Below, in pieces: positions 18,085 through 64,000 of a stretch of 64,000 nucleotides of DNA. The position numbers and the translations under genes were made by a program. Below the pieces are notes generated by a model. That model had not been told where the DNA came from, searched no databases, and worked only from the letters and a program-made list of their open reading frames with translations. This stretch comes from Acidobacteriota bacterium (GTDB taxonomy: Bacteria; Acidobacteriota; UBA890; WLXD01). The first letter of the stretch is position 1, and each line of letters begins with the position of its first letter. The DNA lies in contig CBDBHB010000004.1 in assembly GCA_965205505.1 (NCBI GenBank), forward strand, positions 18,206 through 82,205, in the 5' to 3' direction.

Positions 18085-18474
18085 ATGGAACTGATTATCG
18101 ACATCGACGATTCCGTCCCTTTGTTTGCCCAGTTGGTCGCGCAGATCAAGAAGGCCGTGCTCTCCGATGAACTATGCCCCGGGGCGCTCTTGCCTTCTAT
18201 TCGGCAGCTTGCGAACGATCTCAGGCTGAACAACAAGACGGTGGCGAAAGCCTACCGATTGCTAGAGCGCGATTCCGTCATCCAAACCAAAGGGTACCGC
18301 GGCACCTTCGTCCACCCCGGCGCCAAGGCCAACAGTACTGTCGATTTGACGGCGTGGGTCATGACGAAATTGCGCGACACCGTAGAGACACTTAGAGGGT
18401 CGGGCGCAACCGACTCGGAGATTCGGATCGCGTTCGGCGACGTCATGAAATCGTCGCGACAGCTGAGGAGATGA
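18085..18474 (+). CDS. GntR-family (YtrA-like) regulator
   Basis: 'PLFAQLVAQIK...LPSIRQLANDL..N.KTVAKAY..LE...GTFV'. Confidence 0.85.
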   Translation: MELIIDIDDSVPLFAQLVAQIKKAVLSDELCPGALLPSIRQLANDLRLNNKTVAKAYRLLERDSVIQTKGYRGTFVHPGAKANSTVDLTAWVMTKLRDTVETLRGSGATDSEIRIAFGDVMKSSRQLRR

Positions 18475-55765: not shown

Positions 55766-57501
55766 CCACTCCGATGCGCGTACCCCACTCGCATTCGTCG
55801 TCGAAGGTATCGACGTTCTTGTTGCTGTCCTCGGCGCTGAGGATGAACGACTTTCCGTCCGCAGGGTCGACGACGATGCTGCTGTAGTCGCCGCTGTGAT
55901 TCGTGTTGTTTCCGTCGACTCCCAGGACACAGCTGATGCCGCGGTCGCCCTTCTCGTAGATTGCGGCCTTGTCGAACTTGTTGTTTCCGGCCTTGCGACC
56001 GGTGAAGCCGATGCCAAGGTGCAGCGCCTTCCCGGCGATCTGGAAGACCGAGGCGATGTCCCCCTGTGTGTTCATCGCCACCGAAGGCGCCCACGCGTAC
56101 TTGTTCTTTCCGAGACCGAGGGTAGACTGCCTCGTGATAGTCGGCGTTTCGCCTCGAGTCGTGGAAAGCGACATCTCGACGATGCGCACGCAGCTCGCGG
56201 TTGCCTTACCGAACTTACAGCCAGTGGAGTGGGACGCGATCAACTGACCGCCCTGAATCACGGCTTCGAGCACGTTCTGGAAGCCAGTGCTGATCTGCGG
56301 CCGTTTCTTGTCCTTCTGCTGGGAGTCGGGCGGAATCGTGTAGATGTCGCCGGTCAGTTGCTCGAATGTCAGCGCCGGAGCGCGGTTCCCGGCCCGAGCG
56401 TCGCCGTCCAGCGTCCAGAAAACATATTGATCCGAGGCGGCGGCGCAGTCAAGCTGGCACTGCGTGCTAAGGAAGTGAGTCGCGCTGCCGGCGCTATCGT
56501 CGAGATGGAAGGCCGGTTGCACCGTTAAAGGCGTGTCGCCGTCGTTGTCGTCCGGTACCGCGAACTTCGATACCTTGAGGTTGGGGCACCCTCCGGCGTT
56601 GGCCGCGATAGCGTTCTTGTCGAAAGCGTAGATGTACGCTCTGGTGAAATCGCCGTCCGCCGTGAAGTCGAAGTTGTTCGCGCTGATCGCTGCCCACTCC
56701 GATCCCATTCCGAGCTGCGGGCGTCCGGCGCCGGACGGGCCCTTCTGCTTCCCTTTGAATCGGTAGGTGCACCAATCGCCGGACGCCCGCTCATCGGCGC
56801 TCGCGGACCTCAACAGGTTCCCGGGGGCGCTGGTGCGCGACACCGAGAGGTGTATCCAGGATGCCTTGGTGTCACTGTTGAATTGGCGACCGGTAAGGAA
56901 GAATCGCTCCGTGTCCGGATCGAAGTGGGTCTTCGTGATTGCCACGAACTGGTCTCCGTTGTCGTTGACCGGCTGTCCGTGATGGTCGTTCTGCGGCGCG
57001 ACGGTGCGGGCGCCACTGCCGCGAATTGATCAGGAGCAAAGCGGCGTTCACGGATTGGAGGATGTGCGTCTTCGACGCGGCTACGGCTGTATCGGGCGCG
57101 AACCAAACCCACAGCAAGTTATCGGTCTCGTTCATCGCTGTTTCCTGGGTCAGCCCTGTGAGTCTTTGGCGGATACCAGGCGCCCCGCTTCGTTCGTTCT
57201 GACTCGCTGCCTCGAGGATTCTTCCCTCAGGCAGGCGCGCGAATGTTGCAGCCCGCGATTTTATTCGCGCAATCTGCCGCGCCGACACAGGGTAGTGGTG
57301 GCGTTGCGATACGACGCGAATCGGCTTGGCTGCCTTTGGCTGTGCTCGTGTCTCCAAAGAAGGCGAGCTGAGATGAGGCCGTACGACAAATGTCTCCTCG
57401 GGCGCAAACCATCGACGGTGCGGTGAGCTCGGCTCGGTGTGAGTCGCGCCGACGCAGAGCCCCGAAACGGCGATCAAAGCAACGATTGGTCTTCCGCGCA
57501 T
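55755..57501 (-). pseudogene. Uncharacterised secreted protein, split by frameshift/deletion near 56950-57030
   Basis: A signal-peptide ORF (56872-57501) and a downstream ORF (55755-56945) overlap in different frames. RBS GGAGG upstream. Confidence 0.55.
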
Positions 57502-57551
57502 CGTCTACACCCTCCGTTTCGCCCGCCTGGGGTTGCGAGTCGCTGCCTGAC

Positions 57552-58762
57552 TGACCCAAACCCCGAAAACGGTGCCAGGTTGATGTTTAGGAAATCGGTG
57601 TACCGTCGTCCTCCAAGCAGGAGGACAGATGAAGCGGAAGAGGTACACGGACGAGCAGATCGCCTACGCGCTGCGGCAGGCACGCCGATCAAGGAGGTGT
57701 GTCGCAAGCTGGGCGTCAGCGAGCAGACGTTGTACACGTGGCGCCGCAAGTTCGCCGGGATGGGCGTGGCCGAACTTCGGGAGCAACGACAACTCCGCCA
57801 TGAGAACCGGAAGTTGAAGCAGCTGGTGGCAGATCTGAGCTTGGACAAGCACATGCTCCAGGAGGTGCTGTCAAAAAAGGTGTGAAGCCGGCGCGCAAGC
57901 GCGAGGTGGTGCGGTACCTGCAGGACGGGTTCCGTGTCAGTGAGCGTCGAGCGTGTCGGCTGATCGAGTTGTCGCGCACCAGCCATCGGTATCAGAGCAC
58001 AAGGACGGACGACCCCGTGCTGCGGCGTCGTCTTGGCGAGCTCGCCGCGGCGCGTCCGCGGTTCGGGTATCGGAGGTTGTGCGTGTTGCTACGCCGCGAG
58101 GGATGGGTAGTGAACCAGAAGCGCGTGTATCGGATCTATCGAGAGGAGGGGCTGGAGGTACGGACCAAAAAGCGACGGCGCAAGCGGGCGAGTCACATAC
58201 GGCTTGTGCTGCCGCCCGCAGAGCGGCCCAACGAGCGCTGGAGCATGGACTTCGTGACCGATCGGCTCGAGAGTGGCCGGCCGTTTCGGGTGCTGACGGT
58301 GGTCGATCAGTTTAGCCGTGAATGTCCGTTACTTGAGCCGGGCGTGTCGATGACCGGCAAGGCGGTGGCTGGAGCACTCGAGCGGCTGTCGTTTGCCGGG
58401 CCGTTGCCACGGGTCATCACCGTCGACAATGGCTCAGAATTCTACTCCCAGGCGATGGACTCCTGGGCGTACCGAAGAGGCGTGCAGTTGGAGTTCATTC
58501 GGCCGGGAAAGCCCGTGGAGAATGCGTTCATCGAGAGTTTCAACGGACGGCTTCGCGACGAATGCCTCAACGCCAACCTGTTCTTCTCGATCGATGACGC
58601 GCGCCGAAAACTGGAGGCTTGGAGGCTTGATTACAATACCCACAGACCACACAGCTCACTGAACGATCGAACTCCTACGGAGTTCGCCAGGGGCTGGCAA
58701 CCGGAGGCTTCGGAACACCGAATCCTAAACCTCTGACTGGTACTGATTTCGGGGTGGGGTCA
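57552..58762 (+). mobile_element. IS3-family element (IS407-like) with a frameshifted orfA
   Basis: IRs TGACCCAAACCCCGAAAACGGTGCCAG / CTGGTACTGATTTCGGGGTGGGGTCA. A6G slippery site at 57873-57879. OrfA 'MKRKRYTDEQIAYALRQA' shifts to 'TPIKEVCRKLG'. Confidence 0.9.
57882..58736 (+). CDS. IS3 transposase OrfB
   Basis: 'WSMDF', 'VDNGSEF', '[22 protein letters not shown]'. Confidence 0.9.
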
Positions 58763-58814: not shown

Positions 58815-59186
58815 GAGGACGCGAGTGCTGATCTCACCCAACGGATCGGGGTCTATGTGGTGGCTGTGGCACTGCCCGTCTTTTCCGACAGTCTGGACGT
58901 CATCCGAGTCGTCGGTGCATGGGTCAATTCAGTGCTTGACGGTGTTGCGACCGCCCTGCAGGGCATGGCCGTCGCGTACGTACTGATGCAGGCCAAGGCC
59001 GTCCACGGTCGCCTCCGGGGCCTCCTGCGAGCATGCACCGCGCAGTCTGCGCATATCTGCGCATACCTGAGTATTGTTGTCCACAGGGGGGGCATCGAAA
59101 GTCAGGGCCGCCTCGCGCCCTGGTACATTTGTAAACAAACGAATCTGCGCGAAATTTCCCACACGATTCCCACAGCGATCCGACAC

Positions 59187-59495
59187 GTGCCGATCGAGCC
59201 AGAAAGCCTCCGCCGCGCGCGCTGGAACCAGCGGTATCGCCGGTGGCGCGCCGGGATCCTCCGGAGCGAGCCGCTGTGCCGTCCCTGCGCCGAAGCGGGC
59301 ATCACGGTCGCCGCCGAGCACATCGACCACATCGAGCCTGTGCACCTGGCGCCGGAGCGCTTCTGGGACCGCACCAACATCCAGCCGTTGTGCCGGGACT
59401 GCCACGAGCGCAAGCACCGCGCGGCAAGGGTCGCGCATTTGCCCAATTTAAAATGTCCCTTAGCCCAAATAATTACCATTCCACAACTCGTGTGA
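59187..59495 (+). CDS. Small HNH endonuclease (phage packaging-associated type)
   Basis: 'PLCRPC...IDHI.P...N.QPLCRDCH..K'. Start uncertain. Confidence 0.75.
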   Translation: MPIEPESLRRARWNQRYRRWRAGILRSEPLCRPCAEAGITVAAEHIDHIEPVHLAPERFWDRTNIQPLCRDCHERKHRAARVAHLPNLKCPLAQIITIPQLV

Positions 59496-59679: not shown

Positions 59680-59735
59680 GACGGAAGGCCCGGCGGCCCA
59701 GTCGGTAGTGTCCTAATTTGAATCGGGGATCAGGC

Positions 59736-60035
59736 TTACGACCTATAATCACTTACGATCGCCGCCCGGACGGCCTTCGCAGGAGAATCAACCTGCTCCG
59801 TATGCAGTACAGCGTAAAAGCGGCGATTCTCGGAGCCCTCTACGGGCGACGACCACGCGTAGCAGATCGACGCTGAGGGATGGCCTGAGAGGCTGTAGAC
59901 GTGGACCGCGCCTTCCCACGCCACCTGGCCCTGGAACTCCTCGCGGACGGCTACAGCCTTCTGGTGCGAAGCGTGGCAGCCGTGCAGCCGTTCGACGTGG
60001 CGTTGCAACTCAGTCGTCGCTACTACTTCCGGCAT
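59736..60035 (-). CDS. Hypothetical passenger protein (99 aa)
   Basis: Clean ORF overlapping the upstream ORF's end and stopping just inside the IR. Confidence 0.65.
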   Translation of the reverse strand: MPEVVATTELQRHVERLHGCHASHQKAVAVREEFQGQVAWEGAVHVYSLSGHPSASICYAWSSPVEGSENRRFYAVLHTEQVDSPAKAVRAAIVSDYRS

Positions 60036-60765
60036 CCCCAGCCTCGGAATCCGAGATCAGCGAATCTCGCATCAGCTCGAGGTAGCCGGTAAGAATCTTA
60101 TGGTCCGCGCTGGTGAGGCTGACCGGAGTTCGCAAGGTCGCCAGCCGCTTACCCGGCAGCGGAATCGAGAGATCTCGCTCGGCCGCTTCTGCTTCCATGA
60201 CATTCTCCTGTCGATTCGGCTGCGGAGAGCCAGCGGAGGACTGTCCGAGCGTTGGTTCCTCTAGTTTATCTTCACCACCATTCGATTCTGGCTCGGGAGA
60301 GGTCAGATTAGCATACGAGATCGTTGCCCGAAACTGCTTGATGAAATCTTCGGCGCCGCTCGGAGGGAAGCTCTTGTCACGCTGCAAGTACAACTTGATA
60401 TCAGCGTCTGAAGGTAGCTTACCGGCGTACTTGCTCCACAGTTCCTGGTGGAGTATCGGATTCAAAGCTGCCCTACAGACAGCTTCGTCGCGTTCGGGAG
60501 AATCGGGCCGCTCATCCAGCACAATCTCGAGAGCCAAGGGGCTAAGTTTCGCGTCTTGGCCGCGCCTCTGGTCGATCAGTCCGAACTGACGCAACGCTCC
60601 GAATGCCACAAGCCCGTTGCTGCTCTTCGGCGAGTATCCCCAGTGCTGCAGAACGGTTTCCTTGGCGGAAGAATGATTGAGAATCTGCCTGTGAAGTGTC
60701 GTGGCCAGCTCCACTGCGCGCTCTAAGTCAATTGACGGCTTCCGAGGACTACGCGATTTCGCCAT
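60010..60765 (-). CDS. Hypothetical passenger protein (251 aa, possible winged-helix)
   Basis: RBS AGGAGG. Helical N-domain with 'GALRQFGLI' and an acidic linker. Confidence 0.7.
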   Translation of the reverse strand: MAKSRSPRKPSIDLERAVELATTLHRQILNHSSAKETVLQHWGYSPKSSNGLVAFGALRQFGLIDQRRGQDAKLSPLALEIVLDERPDSPERDEAVCRAALNPILHQELWSKYAGKLPSDADIKLYLQRDKSFPPSGAEDFIKQFRATISYANLTSPEPESNGGEDKLEEPTLGQSSAGSPQPNRQENVMEAEAAERDLSIPLPGKRLATLRTPVSLTSADHKILTGYLELMRDSLISDSEAGDAGSSSDD

Positions 60766-60818
60766 TCGATAGGCCCTCCTGTCGATGCTACACTTATCCT
60801 TCTATGGGACGCTGATAG

Positions 60819-60911
60819 CGGAAGGTGAGGGAATCGAACCCCTTCGCTGCGTCCACAGCGAGCCCTCCGGGTGTAAACCCCGTTACTGGACCATCCAATG
60901 GGTCACCTTCC
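60819..60911 (-). tRNA. Non-canonical 9/3 (or 8/4) allo-tRNA-like gene, long variable arm, apparent anticodon UUA
   Basis: Acceptor GGAAGGTGA/TCACCTTCC; D arm ATTGGA-TGG-TCCAGT; anticodon arm CGGG-GTTTACA-CCCG; variable arm TCGCTG/CAGCGA; T arm GGG-TTCGATT-CCC; G73; CCA not encoded. Confidence 0.75.
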
Positions 60912-60978
60912 GTTGTCCGTCCCACTCCTCGAACAGTTTTCGTATACGAATTAGGCTCGCGTACGAATATGCGCGAAC

Positions 60979-61044
60979 AGTCTCACGTTTAATCTCCCCC
61001 TAGTCAAGCGCGGGGTTGAGAAATAATCCGATATCTGCTAGATT
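60979..61044. promoter_or_regulatory. Divergent sigma70-like promoters between the tRNA and transposase A
   Basis: Plus strand TTGAGA-17-TAGATT (61016-61044). Minus strand TTGACT-17-GAGACT (61007-60979). Confidence 0.45.
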
Positions 61045-61068
61045 GTTCTCCATACTAAGGAGATCAAC

Positions 61069-61899
61069 ATGGCTAACGTCCTGAAGCGAGAGAAGCAAGA
61101 GGCGGTCATCCGGTGCTTGGTCGAGGGTTGCTCGATCCGAGCCACGGAGCGCATGACGGGCGTTCACCGCGACAGCGTCATGCGGTTGCTCGTCCGGGTC
61201 GGAAACGGCTGCGAGGCGGCGATGGATGACCGAATGCAGAACCTTCCCTGTGAGCAGATCCAGGTTGACGAGATCTGGGCTTACGTTGGCAAGAAGCAGC
61301 GCCACCTAAAGCCATCTGATGACCCGCGTCGCTTCGGTGACTTCTGGACGTTCGTTGCGCTGGACCCGGAATCGAAGATCGTCCCAGCCTTTCGCGTCGG
61401 CAAGCGCGACCTAGCAACCGCTACCGCGTTCATGGGCGATGTCGCTTCGCGCCTCGCCAACCGCGTGCAGCTTTCCTCCGACTCCCTGGCCGCCTACGTC
61501 GAAGCGACCGAGCAGGCATTCGGTCCGTACGTCGACTACGGTCAGATCGTAAAGTGCTATGAAGCCGAGCCAATCGGTCCGGGTAGGTACAGCCCGCCGC
61601 ACGTCACGAGCACCCGTCGCAGGGCGATCGTCGGCCAGCCAGCACCAGACAAGATCTGCACCAGCCACATCGAGCGGCAGAACCTGACCATGCGTATGAA
61701 CATGCGCCGCTTCACTCGCCTGACGAACGCGTTCAGCAAGAAGGTCGAGAACCTGCGCGCGGCCGTCTCGCTGCACTTCGCTCACTACAACTTCGTGCGC
61801 GTCCACCAGACTCTGCGAGTCACTCCCGCTATGGAAGCTGGCGTGACGGGCTCACTTTGGTCAATTGGTCGACTGATCGACGAAGCAGGTTCAAATTAG
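61069..61899 (+). CDS. IS1-family DDE transposase A (HTH plus DDE, no zinc finger)
   Basis: 'LVEGCSIRATER.TGV', 'QVDEIW', 'SDS', 'IERQNLTMR...RRFTR'. Stop codon lies inside the IRR. Confidence 0.88.
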   Translation: MANVLKREKQEAVIRCLVEGCSIRATERMTGVHRDSVMRLLVRVGNGCEAAMDDRMQNLPCEQIQVDEIWAYVGKKQRHLKPSDDPRRFGDFWTFVALDPESKIVPAFRVGKRDLATATAFMGDVASRLANRVQLSSDSLAAYVEATEQAFGPYVDYGQIVKCYEAEPIGPGRYSPPHVTSTRRRAIVGQPAPDKICTSHIERQNLTMRMNMRRFTRLTNAFSKKVENLRAAVSLHFAHYNFVRVHQTLRVTPAMEAGVTGSLWSIGRLIDEAGSN

Positions 61900-61935
61900 G
61901 ACACTACCGCCCGGTCGGTAGTGTCTCAGTTTAAT

Positions 61936-61983
61936 TTCCCAGGTTGACGCTTCATCGAGTTCCCAGGTTGACGCTTCATCGAG
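61936..61983 (+). repeat. Perfect 24-bp tandem duplication
   Basis: TTCCCAGGTTGACGCTTCATCGAG twice. Confidence 0.95.
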
Positions 61984-62073
61984 CGTCCCGTAGGCTGCGC
62001 GGCGCACATACACCAGCTAGCATGGCCCGGCGCCTATCGCCGGAACACTCACCATTACCAGGAGGCACCCCGA

Positions 62074-62446
62074 ATGGGACGCCGAATCCTCTGCGCAGTC
62101 ACTCTGGTCTGCGTCATCTTCTCGACTTCTGGATGCGCCACCATTCTGGCAAAGCAACCGGCCGTCTCCGCTAACTCAAACCCGGTAGGCGCACAGGTGC
62201 TTAGTTGATGGCCAGCTTGTCGGCAACACACCGATGCGTGTCGAGCTTGACCCGAAGAACGCCAAGTCGATCACCTTGCGCATGGAAGGCTGCGAAGACA
62301 TAACCGTTCCATTAACCCGCAGCACCGGCGCTGGCTGGGTTATCCTCGATATCCTGACGGGAGTCGTTCCGATCGTTATCGACGCGGTTACCGGAAAGTG
62401 GACCAGCTTGAACCCCAAGGACATCAACGCCCAGATGCGATGCTAG
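62074..62446 (+). pseudogene. PEGA-domain lipoprotein with a +1 frameshift near 62200
   Basis: RBS AGGAGG; 'SGCATI...SNPVGAQVL' then 'VDGQLVGNTP...ID.VTGKW'. Confidence 0.7.
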
Positions 62447-62705
62447 TGAAGAGCTAGTTGCTGGAGAAAGGGCGGGCGCTGTCGAGAAATCGCGCAGTGC
62501 CCGCCCTTATGTCTGTCACTTGGTGCGTATACGCTAGCGTATATACTCTCTCCACCACCACACCCACCCCATCCTAGGCCAAGGAGCACAACCCCTCGAT
62601 GTCGAAGACGAACGGTAGCGTAGGCAGAGCATTGAAGCGCGCTCCTTTGTCTTGAACACGATTTTCCCCTCGACGCACCCCCAAACCCACACCTACGGAG
62701 CATAG

Positions 62706-62954
62706 ATGCCGACGGGACCGAATGGTGAGAAGCGCCCCGGAAGCGTTATCGCTAACGCAGTCCACGTGATGGAGATCGCCACCGGCCAGCGCGAAGAGGA
62801 GTGTGCCGACGTGAAGCCATCACGTTCAGTGCCAGCACGTCGTGCTGGTGGGCTGAAGGGAGGGAAGGCGCGCGCAGCGTCTCTGTCGAGTAAGCGCAGG
62901 TCCGAGATCGCGCGCAAGGCCGCCGAGGCGCGCTGGGGCAGGAAGCTGGCCTGA
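62706..62954 (+). CDS. Small basic protein (KGG/histone-H1-like, nucleic-acid-binding candidate)
   Basis: 'GP.GEKRP..VI.NAV.V..IATG', 'GGLKGGKARA..LS..RRSEIARKAA.ARW'. RBS GGAG. Confidence 0.75.
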   Translation: MPTGPNGEKRPGSVIANAVHVMEIATGQREEECADVKPSRSVPARRAGGLKGGKARAASLSSKRRSEIARKAAEARWGRKLA

Positions 62955-62983
62955 GAAATCGTGGGGGCCGGGAAGACGGGCAG

Positions 62984-63058
62984 AGCCGCCGGCGGGGATC
63001 GAACCCGCAATCAGGGGTTTCCAGCCCCTAGCCTTACTCCCAATTTGGCCACGGCGGC
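62984..63058 (-). tRNA. tRNA with Ser anticodon GGA on a short-variable-loop, U73 (non-Ser) body
   Basis: GCCGCCG/CGGCGGC; D stem GCC/GGC; AGGGG-CT GGA AA-CCCCT; 4-nt variable loop; GCGGG-TTCGATC-CCCGC; discriminator T; CCA not encoded. Confidence 0.85.
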
Positions 63059-63292
63059 TAAGTTTGTGTGCTCCCGGCCCCTCACGTGTTACGCTAGACG
63101 CAATTAGGGCGTTGTTGATTTGGATCCACTTCGGGCTCCACCCCGAAGCGGATCGCCCCCTAATCCGCTTTCGACGGCCCTTTCACCTTTGGTGATCGGG
63201 CCGCTTCCTTTTGCGAGGATACCAGACCTTAGTATGGTCGTCTAACGTCTGGTTGCCACCAGAAAACACACTGAATTTAAACTGATTTATGC

Positions 63293-63321
63293 TTGACAAC
63301 AGAATGGTATTCATGTACCTT
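63293..63321 (+). promoter_or_regulatory. Sigma70-like promoter of transposase B, probably leaderless
   Basis: TTGACA-17-TACCTT, with the ATG 7 nt downstream and no RBS. Confidence 0.55.
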
Positions 63322-63328
63322 TCTGGGT

Positions 63329-64000
63329 ATGAACAAGCTATCGACCGCGAAGCGAGCAACGATCATCAACCTGCTCGTAGAGGGCTCTTCTTTACGGGCC
63401 ATTAGCCGCATCACCGGGGCCTCGATCAACACGATCTCGAAGCTCCTGGTTGACGCTGGCAACGCTTGCGCGGCGTACCATGACGAGCACGTGCGCGAGC
63501 TGCCCTGCAAGCGTGTGCAGGCCGATGAAATATGGGCGTTCTGCTACGCCAAGCAGAAGAACGTTCCCGAGGGCAAGCGCGGTCATTTTGGCTACGGCGA
63601 CGTATGGACGTACACGGGCATCTGCGCGGACACGAAGCTGATCGCATCTTGGCGCGTGGGGCCGCGCGATGTGGGCACGGCTACCGATTTCATGCAGGAT
63701 CTCGCGGGCCGGCTGAGCAACCGCATCCAGCTAACGACTGACGGGCACAGGATGTACCTGAACGCAGTCGAGGATGCGTTCGCGCATGAGATCGACTACG
63801 CGATGCTCCAGAAGGTCTACGGCCCGGACCCGGAGCCGCAGCGCCGCTACAGCCCCGCCAAGTGCCAAGGAAGCCAGCGGCTGCGAGTGCAGGGGAACCC
63901 TGACGAGGCGCACATCAGCACGTCATACGTCGAGCGACAGAACCTGACCATGCGGATGAGCATGCGGCGCTTCACGCGGCTCACGAATGCATTCTCGAAG
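63329..64000 (+). CDS. IS1-family DDE transposase B (3'-truncated by the window edge)
   Basis: [30 protein letters not shown]...QADEIW...TTDG...[24 protein letters not shown]. Confidence 0.9.

Follow-up and report, generated by a model that had tools for sequence, protein, structure and literature searches.

An ochre-type (9/3) allo-tRNA carried by an IS1-family insertion sequence in an Acidobacteriota genome

The (9/3) allo-tRNAs are tRNAs with a 9-bp acceptor stem and a 3-bp T stem. In the text of Mukai 2017 (Nucleic Acids Res 45:2776; PMC5389517), UAA is among the codons matched by these tRNAs and UUA anticodons are reported, and a long variable arm with G73 or U73 is given as the set of determinants for seryl-tRNA synthetase (SerRS). 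The same text describes (9/3) allo-tRNAs, including variants of species that have UUA as their wild-type anticodon, that were processed, charged and used by E. coli ribosomes, with serine (Ser) being inserted. An association of allo-tRNAs with transposable elements and toxin-antitoxin (TA) genes is proposed there, as are regulatory or TA-associated roles. No activity in E. coli was seen for six allo-tRNA(UAU) species associated with transposons or TA genes, and an allo-tRNA pseudogene overlapping a transposon gene was described (PMC5389517). In allo-tRNA(UTu1), an engineered (9/3) species studied by cryo-EM (Prabhakar et al. 2022, PMC9561287), a single C8:A45 contact between linker and variable arm already impeded translocation. 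The natural role of allo-tRNAs has been open since 2017, and most of them are known from metagenome reads only. Here, an allo-tRNA gene with the anticodon UUA is described in a stretch of 64,000 nucleotides (nt) from an Acidobacteriota bacterium, i.e., positions 18,206 to 82,205 of contig CBDBHB010000004.1. This whole stretch is called the window, and positions are given in it. The gene is real and selectively maintained, and it is the cargo of an active mobile IS1-family element which moves between genomes.

The gene and its two main helical features were placed as follows.

60819..60911, minus strand: (9/3) allo-tRNA gene of 93 nt including the discriminator, supported by its sequence, a tRNA-Sec match and covariation in six homologous sequences
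60911-60903 and 60828-60820, minus strand: acceptor stem of nine Watson-Crick pairs, 5' strand GGAAGGUGA and 3' strand UCACCUUCC
60878-60872, minus strand: 7-nt loop of the anticodon arm CGGG-GUUUACA-CCCG, which has four stem pairs; anticodon UUA at 60876-60874

The 5' end at 60911 and the discriminator G73 at 60819 were read from the sequence. A CCC linker (60902-60900) joins the acceptor 5' strand to the D arm, i.e., AUUGG(A)-UGG-(U)CCAGU, which has 5-6 pairs and a small loop containing GG and is followed by AA. GAGGGC lies between the anticodon arm and the variable arm. The variable arm, UCGCUGU-GGAC-GCAGCGA, has a 7-bp stem and a 4-nt loop, and AG precedes the T arm, GGG-UUCGAUU-CCC, with its 3-bp stem and 7-nt loop. 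No CCA is encoded at the 3' end. The first-pass annotation had described a 9-bp acceptor stem, a 3-bp T stem, a long D stem like that of selenocysteine (Sec) tRNA, a long variable arm, G73 and the loop GU-UUA-CA, and each of these was recovered on the minus strand. A feature of the plus strand was rejected; the open reading frames (ORFs) at 60785-61003 and 60825-60992 overlap the tRNA without support, and the models match the minus strand.

In the window, the allo-tRNA was missed by ARAGORN and by Rfam at gathering thresholds, and both reported one tRNA only, at 62983-63058. At permissive thresholds, Rfam tRNA-Sec (RF01852) gave an end-to-end match of 34.8 bits, below its gathering score of 47, and placed UUA at the UCA of tRNA-Sec. 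In a search of 801 nt, the E value of this match was 5e-5; over the whole genome it was 8.9e-5. The minimum free energy of the RNA is -43.8 kcal/mol (z = -3.05), and an equally stable fold was found in 1 of 200 shuffles. Our own models, R1 and R2, score the gene at 120 and 113 bits, respectively.

The host genome (G000) comprises 5.98 Mb in nine contigs with 64% G+C and is 96% complete, and the window lies at the end of its contig C4. The allo-tRNA is single-copy in this genome. A separate, proper tRNA-Sec scores 68.2 bits, and SelA (two loci) and SelB are present. The SelA scores are identical at the two loci, i.e., C6:10616-11695 and C6:191418-192497. Partial copies of the tRNA-Sec gene, each its 3' two-thirds, were found at C9:1047616-1047715 and C8:443625-443738. 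By their sequence, they look like attachment-site remnants of elements which had integrated at tRNA-Sec. Among contigs assembled from four sequencing runs (DNA, or type not stated), one of X7 covers 60305-60923 and one of X4 covers 60304-60869, each differing little from the window.

Five homologs of the allo-tRNA were found, three of them in genomes and two on contigs.

G005: genome of the same genus, 95% identical
L138:1087-1178: metagenome contig, 76% identical, found by a 3'-end pattern
L250:365-458: IMG/VR contig of 323 kb, 72% identical, anticodon CUA
L263 (genome G085) and L264 (genome G040): two other families of the same phylum, found by covariance model

Identity across the six copies ranges from 70 to 95%. 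The distribution is sparse. Covariance-model matches at E <= 1e-5 occurred in 4 of 151 sampled genomes, counting the host, and within the host's class the gene was found in 2 of 26 genomes, i.e., the host and G005. Strains G002-G004 belong to the host genus as well and do not have the element. When the 93 nt were searched by BLAST against 401 genomes of the phylum, G005 was the sole full-length match, and the remaining 14 matches were 3'-end matches within ordinary tRNA-Ser genes and tRNA arrays. The 3'-end pattern listed 80 metagenome loci, about 73 of which gave a tRNA with the first seven acceptor pairs closed. Most of these were ordinary 7/5 tRNA-Ser, a few were other species, irregular and with a long arm, and among the listed loci L138 alone combines the 9/3 fold with the UUUACA loop. 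A second pattern, for viral contigs, gave 12 further loci and no homolog. Relatives of the transposase described below were collected with one genome per species, and the best 80 of 238 loci were examined. No homolog of the allo-tRNA was found in these 80 loci with default filters, and the best score was 17.5 bits when the 15 closest loci were searched again with filters off.

In the six-sequence alignment, standard pairs fill 93.8% of 161 cells, and 14 of 28 pairs are changed on both sides. None of 500 column shuffles matched the observed percent paired, the pairs changed on both sides, the cells changed on both sides or the covariation score; the measure of further pair types was non-significant (135 of 500 shuffles). 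Controls in which the partner was slid by 1-3 columns gave 0-4 pairs changed on both sides. Because the alignment had been fitted to the model, it is biased towards the structure, but the same helices are recovered by RNAalifold, which was run independently. All nine acceptor pairs and all three T-stem pairs are standard in six of six sequences (100%). At acceptor pair 9, four sequences have A-U and the other two have U-A; the first pair of the T stem is G-C or A-U, depending on the copy. Because both of these pairs covary, the branch is split 9/3 rather than 8/4, and the class given in the first-pass annotation is supported. The 8/4 register (G70-U84) was rejected on the covariation of pair 9; in L263 it would place G opposite A.

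The remaining parts are also kept among the homologs. The variable stem has 5-7 bp, with four pairs changed on both sides and 81.6% of cells paired. The D arm has 4-6 pairs with covariation at 3-4 of them, and its loop of 3-5 nt always contains GG. G73, the pairs G1-C72, G2-C71 and A3-U70, and the long variable arm are present in all six copies, and the D-loop GG and the T-loop UUCGA are conserved. CCC (tRNA positions 10-12, 60902-60900) and GGG (positions 47-49, 60865-60863) are invariant in all six as well. These are paired by both RNAfold and RNAalifold; as they do not vary, covariation neither supports nor rejects the pairing. If real, the CCC:GGG helix could be an extra 3-bp helix enclosing the D and anticodon arms in a five-helix junction.

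Between the window and L138, identity is 76% in the tRNA, 68% in the transposase gene, 61% in ORF99, 53% in ORF251 and 49-52% in the intergenic spacers. The tRNA is thus the best-conserved DNA segment of the element, and a decaying pseudogene is therefore unlikely.

The anticodon loop is GUUUACA in the window and G005, CUUUACA in L138, L263 and L264, and CUCUACA in L250. U33, A36, C37 and A38 are invariant. A different triplet at positions 34-36 of the homologs had been set beforehand as a refutation of the ochre assignment. UUA stands there in five of six copies and CUA (amber) in L250, and both are stop anticodons, so the assignment is not refuted in the sense intended. The canonical loop CU-UUA-AA was also sought and occurs in none of the six. 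G32 and C37 had been called atypical at first pass. This holds for C37 as a trait of all six copies, while G32 is restricted to the host genus and the other four copies have the usual C32. Judged from the six sequences, C37 is a fixed lineage trait and not a sign of decay, and G32 is a genus peculiarity.

The anticodon stem is short in the whole set. Its outer pair is seen as C-G, G-C, A-U and U-A, and because it covaries, the 4-pair stem is regarded as maintained. In one copy, L263, C stands opposite C at the loop-closing pair. The two positions above the stem show A/A, A/G or C/A oppositions in all six copies. The short stem is treated as a lineage peculiarity, and the defining 9/3 branch is present. 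The suspicion that the gene may be degenerate is not borne out, as C37, A38 and the 4-pair stem (with the C-C closing pair in L263) are kept in all six copies, together with compensatory changes.

The allo-tRNA lies in a defined element, whose parts are the following.

59704..61908: IS1-family insertion sequence (IS) with cargo, 2205 bp, in the order left inverted repeat, ORF99 (minus), ORF251 (minus), allo-tRNA (minus), transposase (plus), right inverted repeat
59704..59722, plus strand: left terminal inverted repeat GGTAGTGTCCTAATTTGAA, from repeat search
61890..61908, plus strand: right terminal inverted repeat, containing the transposase stop TAG at 61897-61899
59696..59703, plus strand: left copy of the target-site duplication, GCCCAGTC, 7 of 8 bases matching the right copy
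61909..61916, plus strand: right copy of the target-site duplication, GCCCGGTC, abutting a second related element which starts at 61917
61069..61899, plus strand: probable IS1-family DDE transposase of 276 aa, from Pfam, NCBIfam and annotated relatives
60010..60765, minus strand: ORF251, cargo protein without assigned function, from the ORF list, with AGGAGG before its ATG
59736..60035, minus strand: ORF99, conserved 99-aa protein without assigned function, from tblastn and alignment

The block 59704-61908 is shared exactly with G005, and the flanks are unrelated. The inverted repeats have 25-nt arms which are 92% complementary and begin with GGTAGTG, and the same termini were found in G005, L138 and 18 of the 80 related loci. 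Perfect 8-bp target duplications flank the element in G005 (AGGTCCCG) and in L138 (CACGAACG). The window, G005 and L138 are three independent insertions of an element carrying the allo-tRNA. Its transposase matched Pfam DDE_Tnp_IS1 with an E value of 9.3e-9 and 36.2 bits (cut-off 24.1), but over 35 residues, and NCBIfam transpos_IS1 with an E value of 7.1e-19 and 68.5 bits, below the cut-off of 100. Plasmid relatives are annotated as IS1 family transposase. IS1 makes target duplications of 8-9 bp. Compared with G005, the window copy is longer by 32 nt (60926-60957) in the stretch that separates the tRNA from the transposase gene, and this insertion contains an inverted repeat, TTCGTA...TACGAA. 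The region upstream of the tRNA is therefore not fixed.

To the left of the element, an IS3-family element (HTH_Tnp_1 ORF at 57439-57885 and rve integrase-core ORF at 57882-58736) and an HNH endonuclease ORF (58857-59495) were found. The contig end is thus a patch of mobile DNA, to which the allo-tRNA element belongs.

The tRNA 3' end and the start of ORF251, which follows it on the same strand, are 53 nt apart. This distance is also 53 nt in L138, and the spacer is only 52% identical between the two. ORF251 homologs were found in G005 (69%), L138, L038, L050, L086 and L116. ORF99 showed W40, G42, Y59-A60-W61 and R90 as invariant residues in an alignment of 20 sequences. Neither protein had a match in Pfam, NCBIfam, PHROGs or PDB sequences, and Atlas gave only hypothetical protein clusters. 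An ORF99-family gene adjoins all six copies of the allo-tRNA in three gene orders. In the window, G005 and L138, this gene lies upstream of the transposase in divergent orientation; in L263 and L264, it lies downstream of the transposase and converges with the tRNA. In L250, the homolog is next to an end resembling an inverted repeat, and no transposase is seen there. At least 14 related elements in which the allo-tRNA was not found have ORF99 as well. By eye, no conserved pairing of the anticodon loop with the 53-nt spacer before ORF251 was seen between the window and L138.

The favoured explanation, held at about even chances, is that of a genuine, selectively maintained UUA (9/3) allo-tRNA on an IS1-family element, and that this tRNA would act as a weak seryl suppressor of UAA. 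A role in translation as such would be roughly a balanced call. Transcription would come from the central intergenic region of the element, the tRNA probably being the leader of a tRNA-ORF251-ORF99 unit. No terminator-like site follows the tRNA on its strand, which makes this co-transcription plausible. RNase P and a 3' nuclease would excise the tRNA, and CCA would then be added. SerRS would charge it with serine through G73, the long variable arm and G1-C72/G2-C71/A3-U70, and EF-Tu would accept it because of the 12-bp branch. The charged tRNA may read UAA as serine at low efficiency and possibly, by wobble of U34, UAG as well. Classical ochre suppressors also read UAG by wobble, and decoding is weakened when position 37 is a pyrimidine. 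C37, the 4-pair stem and the possible CCC:GGG core clamp would keep suppression weak enough for tolerance. Low read-through efficiency is to be expected because of C37, the short stem, and the three C that could face three G here, against a single contact in UTu1 that impedes translocation.

Stop codon usage bears on this explanation. In a crude count of 2959 long ORFs of the host genome with high G+C at third codon positions (GC3), TAA ends 242 (8%), TAG 1165 (39%) and TGA 52%. It agrees with the earlier claim that UAA is a minority stop here. The 39% of TAG seems high for a bacterium of 64% G+C. A weak suppressor would be tolerable with TAA ending only about 8% of the long ORFs, though TAG ends 39%. 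Among the element ORFs, no UAA-interrupted gene was found for the tRNA to rescue. The transposase ends with TAG within the inverted repeat, ORF251 with TGA and ORF99 with TAA. Read-through of the ORF99 TAA adds one residue before a TGA, and the ORF99 homolog of L138 ends in TGA.

Several points weigh against suppression of UAA. Position 37 is a pyrimidine in all six copies. Functional tRNAs almost always have a purine at 37, and a suppressor with A36 requires A37 next to it. Only four standard pairs make up the anticodon stem, and the closing pair of L263 is C-C. The change from UUA to CUA is a single substitution, which is weak evidence for selection on stop reading, and the invariant UUUACA loop could equally be read as a binding motif. 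Strong activity is argued against because U34 reading UAG would expose 39% of the genes. No sigma-70-like promoter was found on the tRNA strand, in a scan covering this one promoter type. Finally, the inactive allo-tRNA(UAU) species in the text of PMC5389517 were likewise associated with transposons or TA genes.

It is possible, if somewhat doubtful, that the gene gives a tRNA-shaped RNA which serves the mobile element and does not decode, with UUUACA as a recognition motif. Such an RNA may be a processing signal for RNase P and RNase Z which sets the 5' end of the ORF251-ORF99 transcript, or it may be a ligand, a decoy or an antitoxin-like partner of ORF99 or of neighbouring TA genes. The invariant C37 and the short anticodon stem suit this explanation. 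So do the ORF99-family gene beside every copy in three gene orders, the constant 53-nt distance to ORF251 despite the low spacer identity, and a Gp49-like/HTH pair adjoining the L264 copy. Tentatively in the same direction point the tRNA-like genes found upstream of the transposase in 14 of the best 80 related loci, several of which are too irregular for normal charging, and the regulatory or TA roles and inactive allo-tRNA(UAU) species in the text of Mukai 2017. However, G73, the GGA acceptor start, the variable arm, the GG/UUCGA elbow and the 12-bp branch are conserved together, and this is the set expected of an L-shaped RNA that SerRS can charge and EF-Tu can accept. The sole change of the triplet keeps a stop anticodon, and ORF99 is also present in the related elements mentioned above, where the allo-tRNA was not found.

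A decaying pseudogene, i.e., a functionless relic of a tRNA-Ser or tRNA-Sec captured by the IS, is very unlikely. Standard tRNA finders miss the gene, its loop and stem are atypical, its 3' half is common to ordinary tRNA-Ser genes, and the pseudogene over a transposon gene in the text of PMC5389517 gives a precedent. But compensatory changes affect half of the 28 pairs over six copies, the tRNA is more conserved than the coding DNA of the element, and the acceptor stem is perfect in every copy. The atypical features are shared among the copies and not scattered. Hardly credible is a second selenocysteine-type tRNA that would be serylated, converted by the host SelA and used with EF-Tu to insert Sec at UAA, since the Sec-like D arm, the best Rfam match being tRNA-Sec, the SelA (two loci), SelB and true tRNA-Sec of the host, and the use of engineered 9/3 allo-tRNAs for Sec insertion are set against a branch of 12 and not 13 bp, a score below the Rfam cut-off, an element which moves between genomes irrespective of Sec machinery, and an argument by analogy with engineered systems.

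The relatives of the transposase were also surveyed for their termini. Within 3-kb flanks, an inverted repeat pair was found in 18 of the best 80 loci, bounding elements of 2.4-3.9 kb; the 8-bp duplications are perfect in 16 of these. These are therefore regarded as a cargo-carrying IS lineage. In fourteen of the best 80 loci, i.e., L049, L050, L058, L063, L066, L068, L071, L072, L081, L089, L091, L096, L103 and L116, a tRNA-like gene on the transposase strand precedes the transposase by 46-781 nt. Long-arm G73 tRNAs with the anticodons UAU (L066), UAG (L068) and GUA (L071) are near related transposases. The upstream genes also include class I tRNAs with ACU, GCU, UGU or CGU and tRNA-like RNAs of 69 nt. 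L096:2138-2220 is a class II A73 tRNA with the canonical ochre loop CUUUAAA. In L063, L066 and L081, an inverted repeat pair with a target duplication encloses the tRNA. ARAGORN placed 12 such genes in this upstream segment, against 6 elsewhere in the loci.

In the window, a second IS1-like element starts at 61917, 8 bp after the first, with the left end GGTAGTGTCTCAGTTT (61917-64000). It contains the 76-nt class I tRNA at 62983-63058 on the minus strand, which has the serine anticodon GGA, a short variable loop and U73, and scores 57.3 bits with Rfam tRNA. This tRNA is 235 nt upstream of and divergent from a second transposase (63293 to the contig end), which is 45% identical to the first. 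Lacking a long arm, the GGA tRNA should not be a substrate of SerRS, as far as its sequence tells. Neither the fetched loci nor the rest of the host genome yielded a homolog of this tRNA.

The surroundings of two homologs were also inspected. In L250:1-6000, the CUA homolog adjoins the ORF99 homolog, and an RtcB RNA ligase is nearby (Pfam E value 6.6e-87). Also nearby, repeats precede a 718-aa protein that has a Cas12f1-like TNB domain, and seven ordinary tRNAs lie farther along the contig. In L264:328-1330, a Gp49-like (DUF891) ORF and an HTH_3 ORF stand directly beside the homolog of G040 in the usual layout of HigB/HigA-type TA pairs. This agrees with the remark in the published text that allo-tRNAs are often near TA genes.

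The material given here has a big meaning for the question of allo-tRNA function. It provides a near-complete genome with Sec machinery and one intact copy of the allo-tRNA. Six covarying homologs are added, in which the odd anticodon arm, i.e., the 4-pair stem and C37, and a stop-type anticodon are maintained. The vehicle is defined as an IS1-family element with transposition footprints and the constant protein partner ORF99. With the genome, the six homologs and the vehicle in hand, the question of a suppressor or an RNA of the element becomes directly testable. The findings point to insertion sequences as carriers of suppressor-like tRNAs from one bacterium to another. If the allo-tRNA decodes, it would be a natural, mobile ochre suppressor; if it does not, it would be a new class of structured RNA encoded by insertion sequences. 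A wider proposal, which is rather unlikely, is that IS1-family elements are vehicles for a stop-codon read-through module, i.e., a weak UUA or CUA allo-tRNA with ORF99, spread by transposition and reaching at least one huge viral contig. The IS lineage would then traffic in serine-type and irregular tRNAs with mismatched anticodons (UAU, UAG, GUA, ACU, GCU, GGA). If this is true, mobile elements are a natural source of genetic-code ambiguity in soil bacteria.

Compared with the (9/3) allo-tRNAs of Mukai 2017, the gene has the same 9-bp acceptor and 3-bp T stem, long variable arm, G73, Sec-like D arm and non-serine anticodon. The consensus D loop in that text is a tetraloop, and the homologs here have 3-5 nt. 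An anticodon stem longer than canonical is typical of that group, without defining it, whereas only four standard pairs are present here. A3-U70 stands in place of the G3:U70 of the tested UUA species. What is already known from that text is 9/3 allo-tRNAs matching UAA and a loose association with transposons and TA genes. The conserved C37, the IS1-family carrier with inverted repeats and target duplications, and the constant ORF99 partner go beyond it, in a comparison made by text and not by sequences. The vehicle, the partner and the arm with C37 and short stem were not met in the published text, and identity with a published species is possible. Full-text literature searches found no publication joining allo-tRNA and IS1, and none on ISMhu11, and nothing relevant stood among the papers listed for suppressor tRNAs as passenger genes of insertion sequences.

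The D-loop GG and T-loop UUCGA are shared with allo-tRNA(UTu1). Unlike its single C8:A45 contact, three invariant C (positions 10-12) face three invariant G here, and these may form a 3-bp clamp in the predicted fold. Bacterial tRNA-Sec (RF01852), the best Rfam match, has a similarly long acceptor stem, long D stem and long variable arm. It differs in a 13-bp branch, where the allo-tRNA has 12 bp, and in the anticodon UCA in place of UUA, and the match of 34.8 bits stays under its cut-off of 47. Unlike canonical tRNA-Ser, the gene has neither a 7/5 branch nor a serine anticodon, and its 3' half resembles tRNA-Ser genes.

Phages with recoded stop codons have suppressor tRNAs. The CUA homolog on the 323-kb IMG/VR contig, beside a tRNA array, is similar to these. 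Unlike in recoded phages, the standard code leaves the neighbouring long ORFs uninterrupted, which gives no sign of recoding at L250. The carrier itself is like other IS1-family elements in its terminal inverted repeats and its 8-bp duplications, and its transposase matches the IS1 models of Pfam and, below the cut-off, of NCBIfam; it is unlike them in carrying a tRNA-shaped gene and two proteins as cargo.

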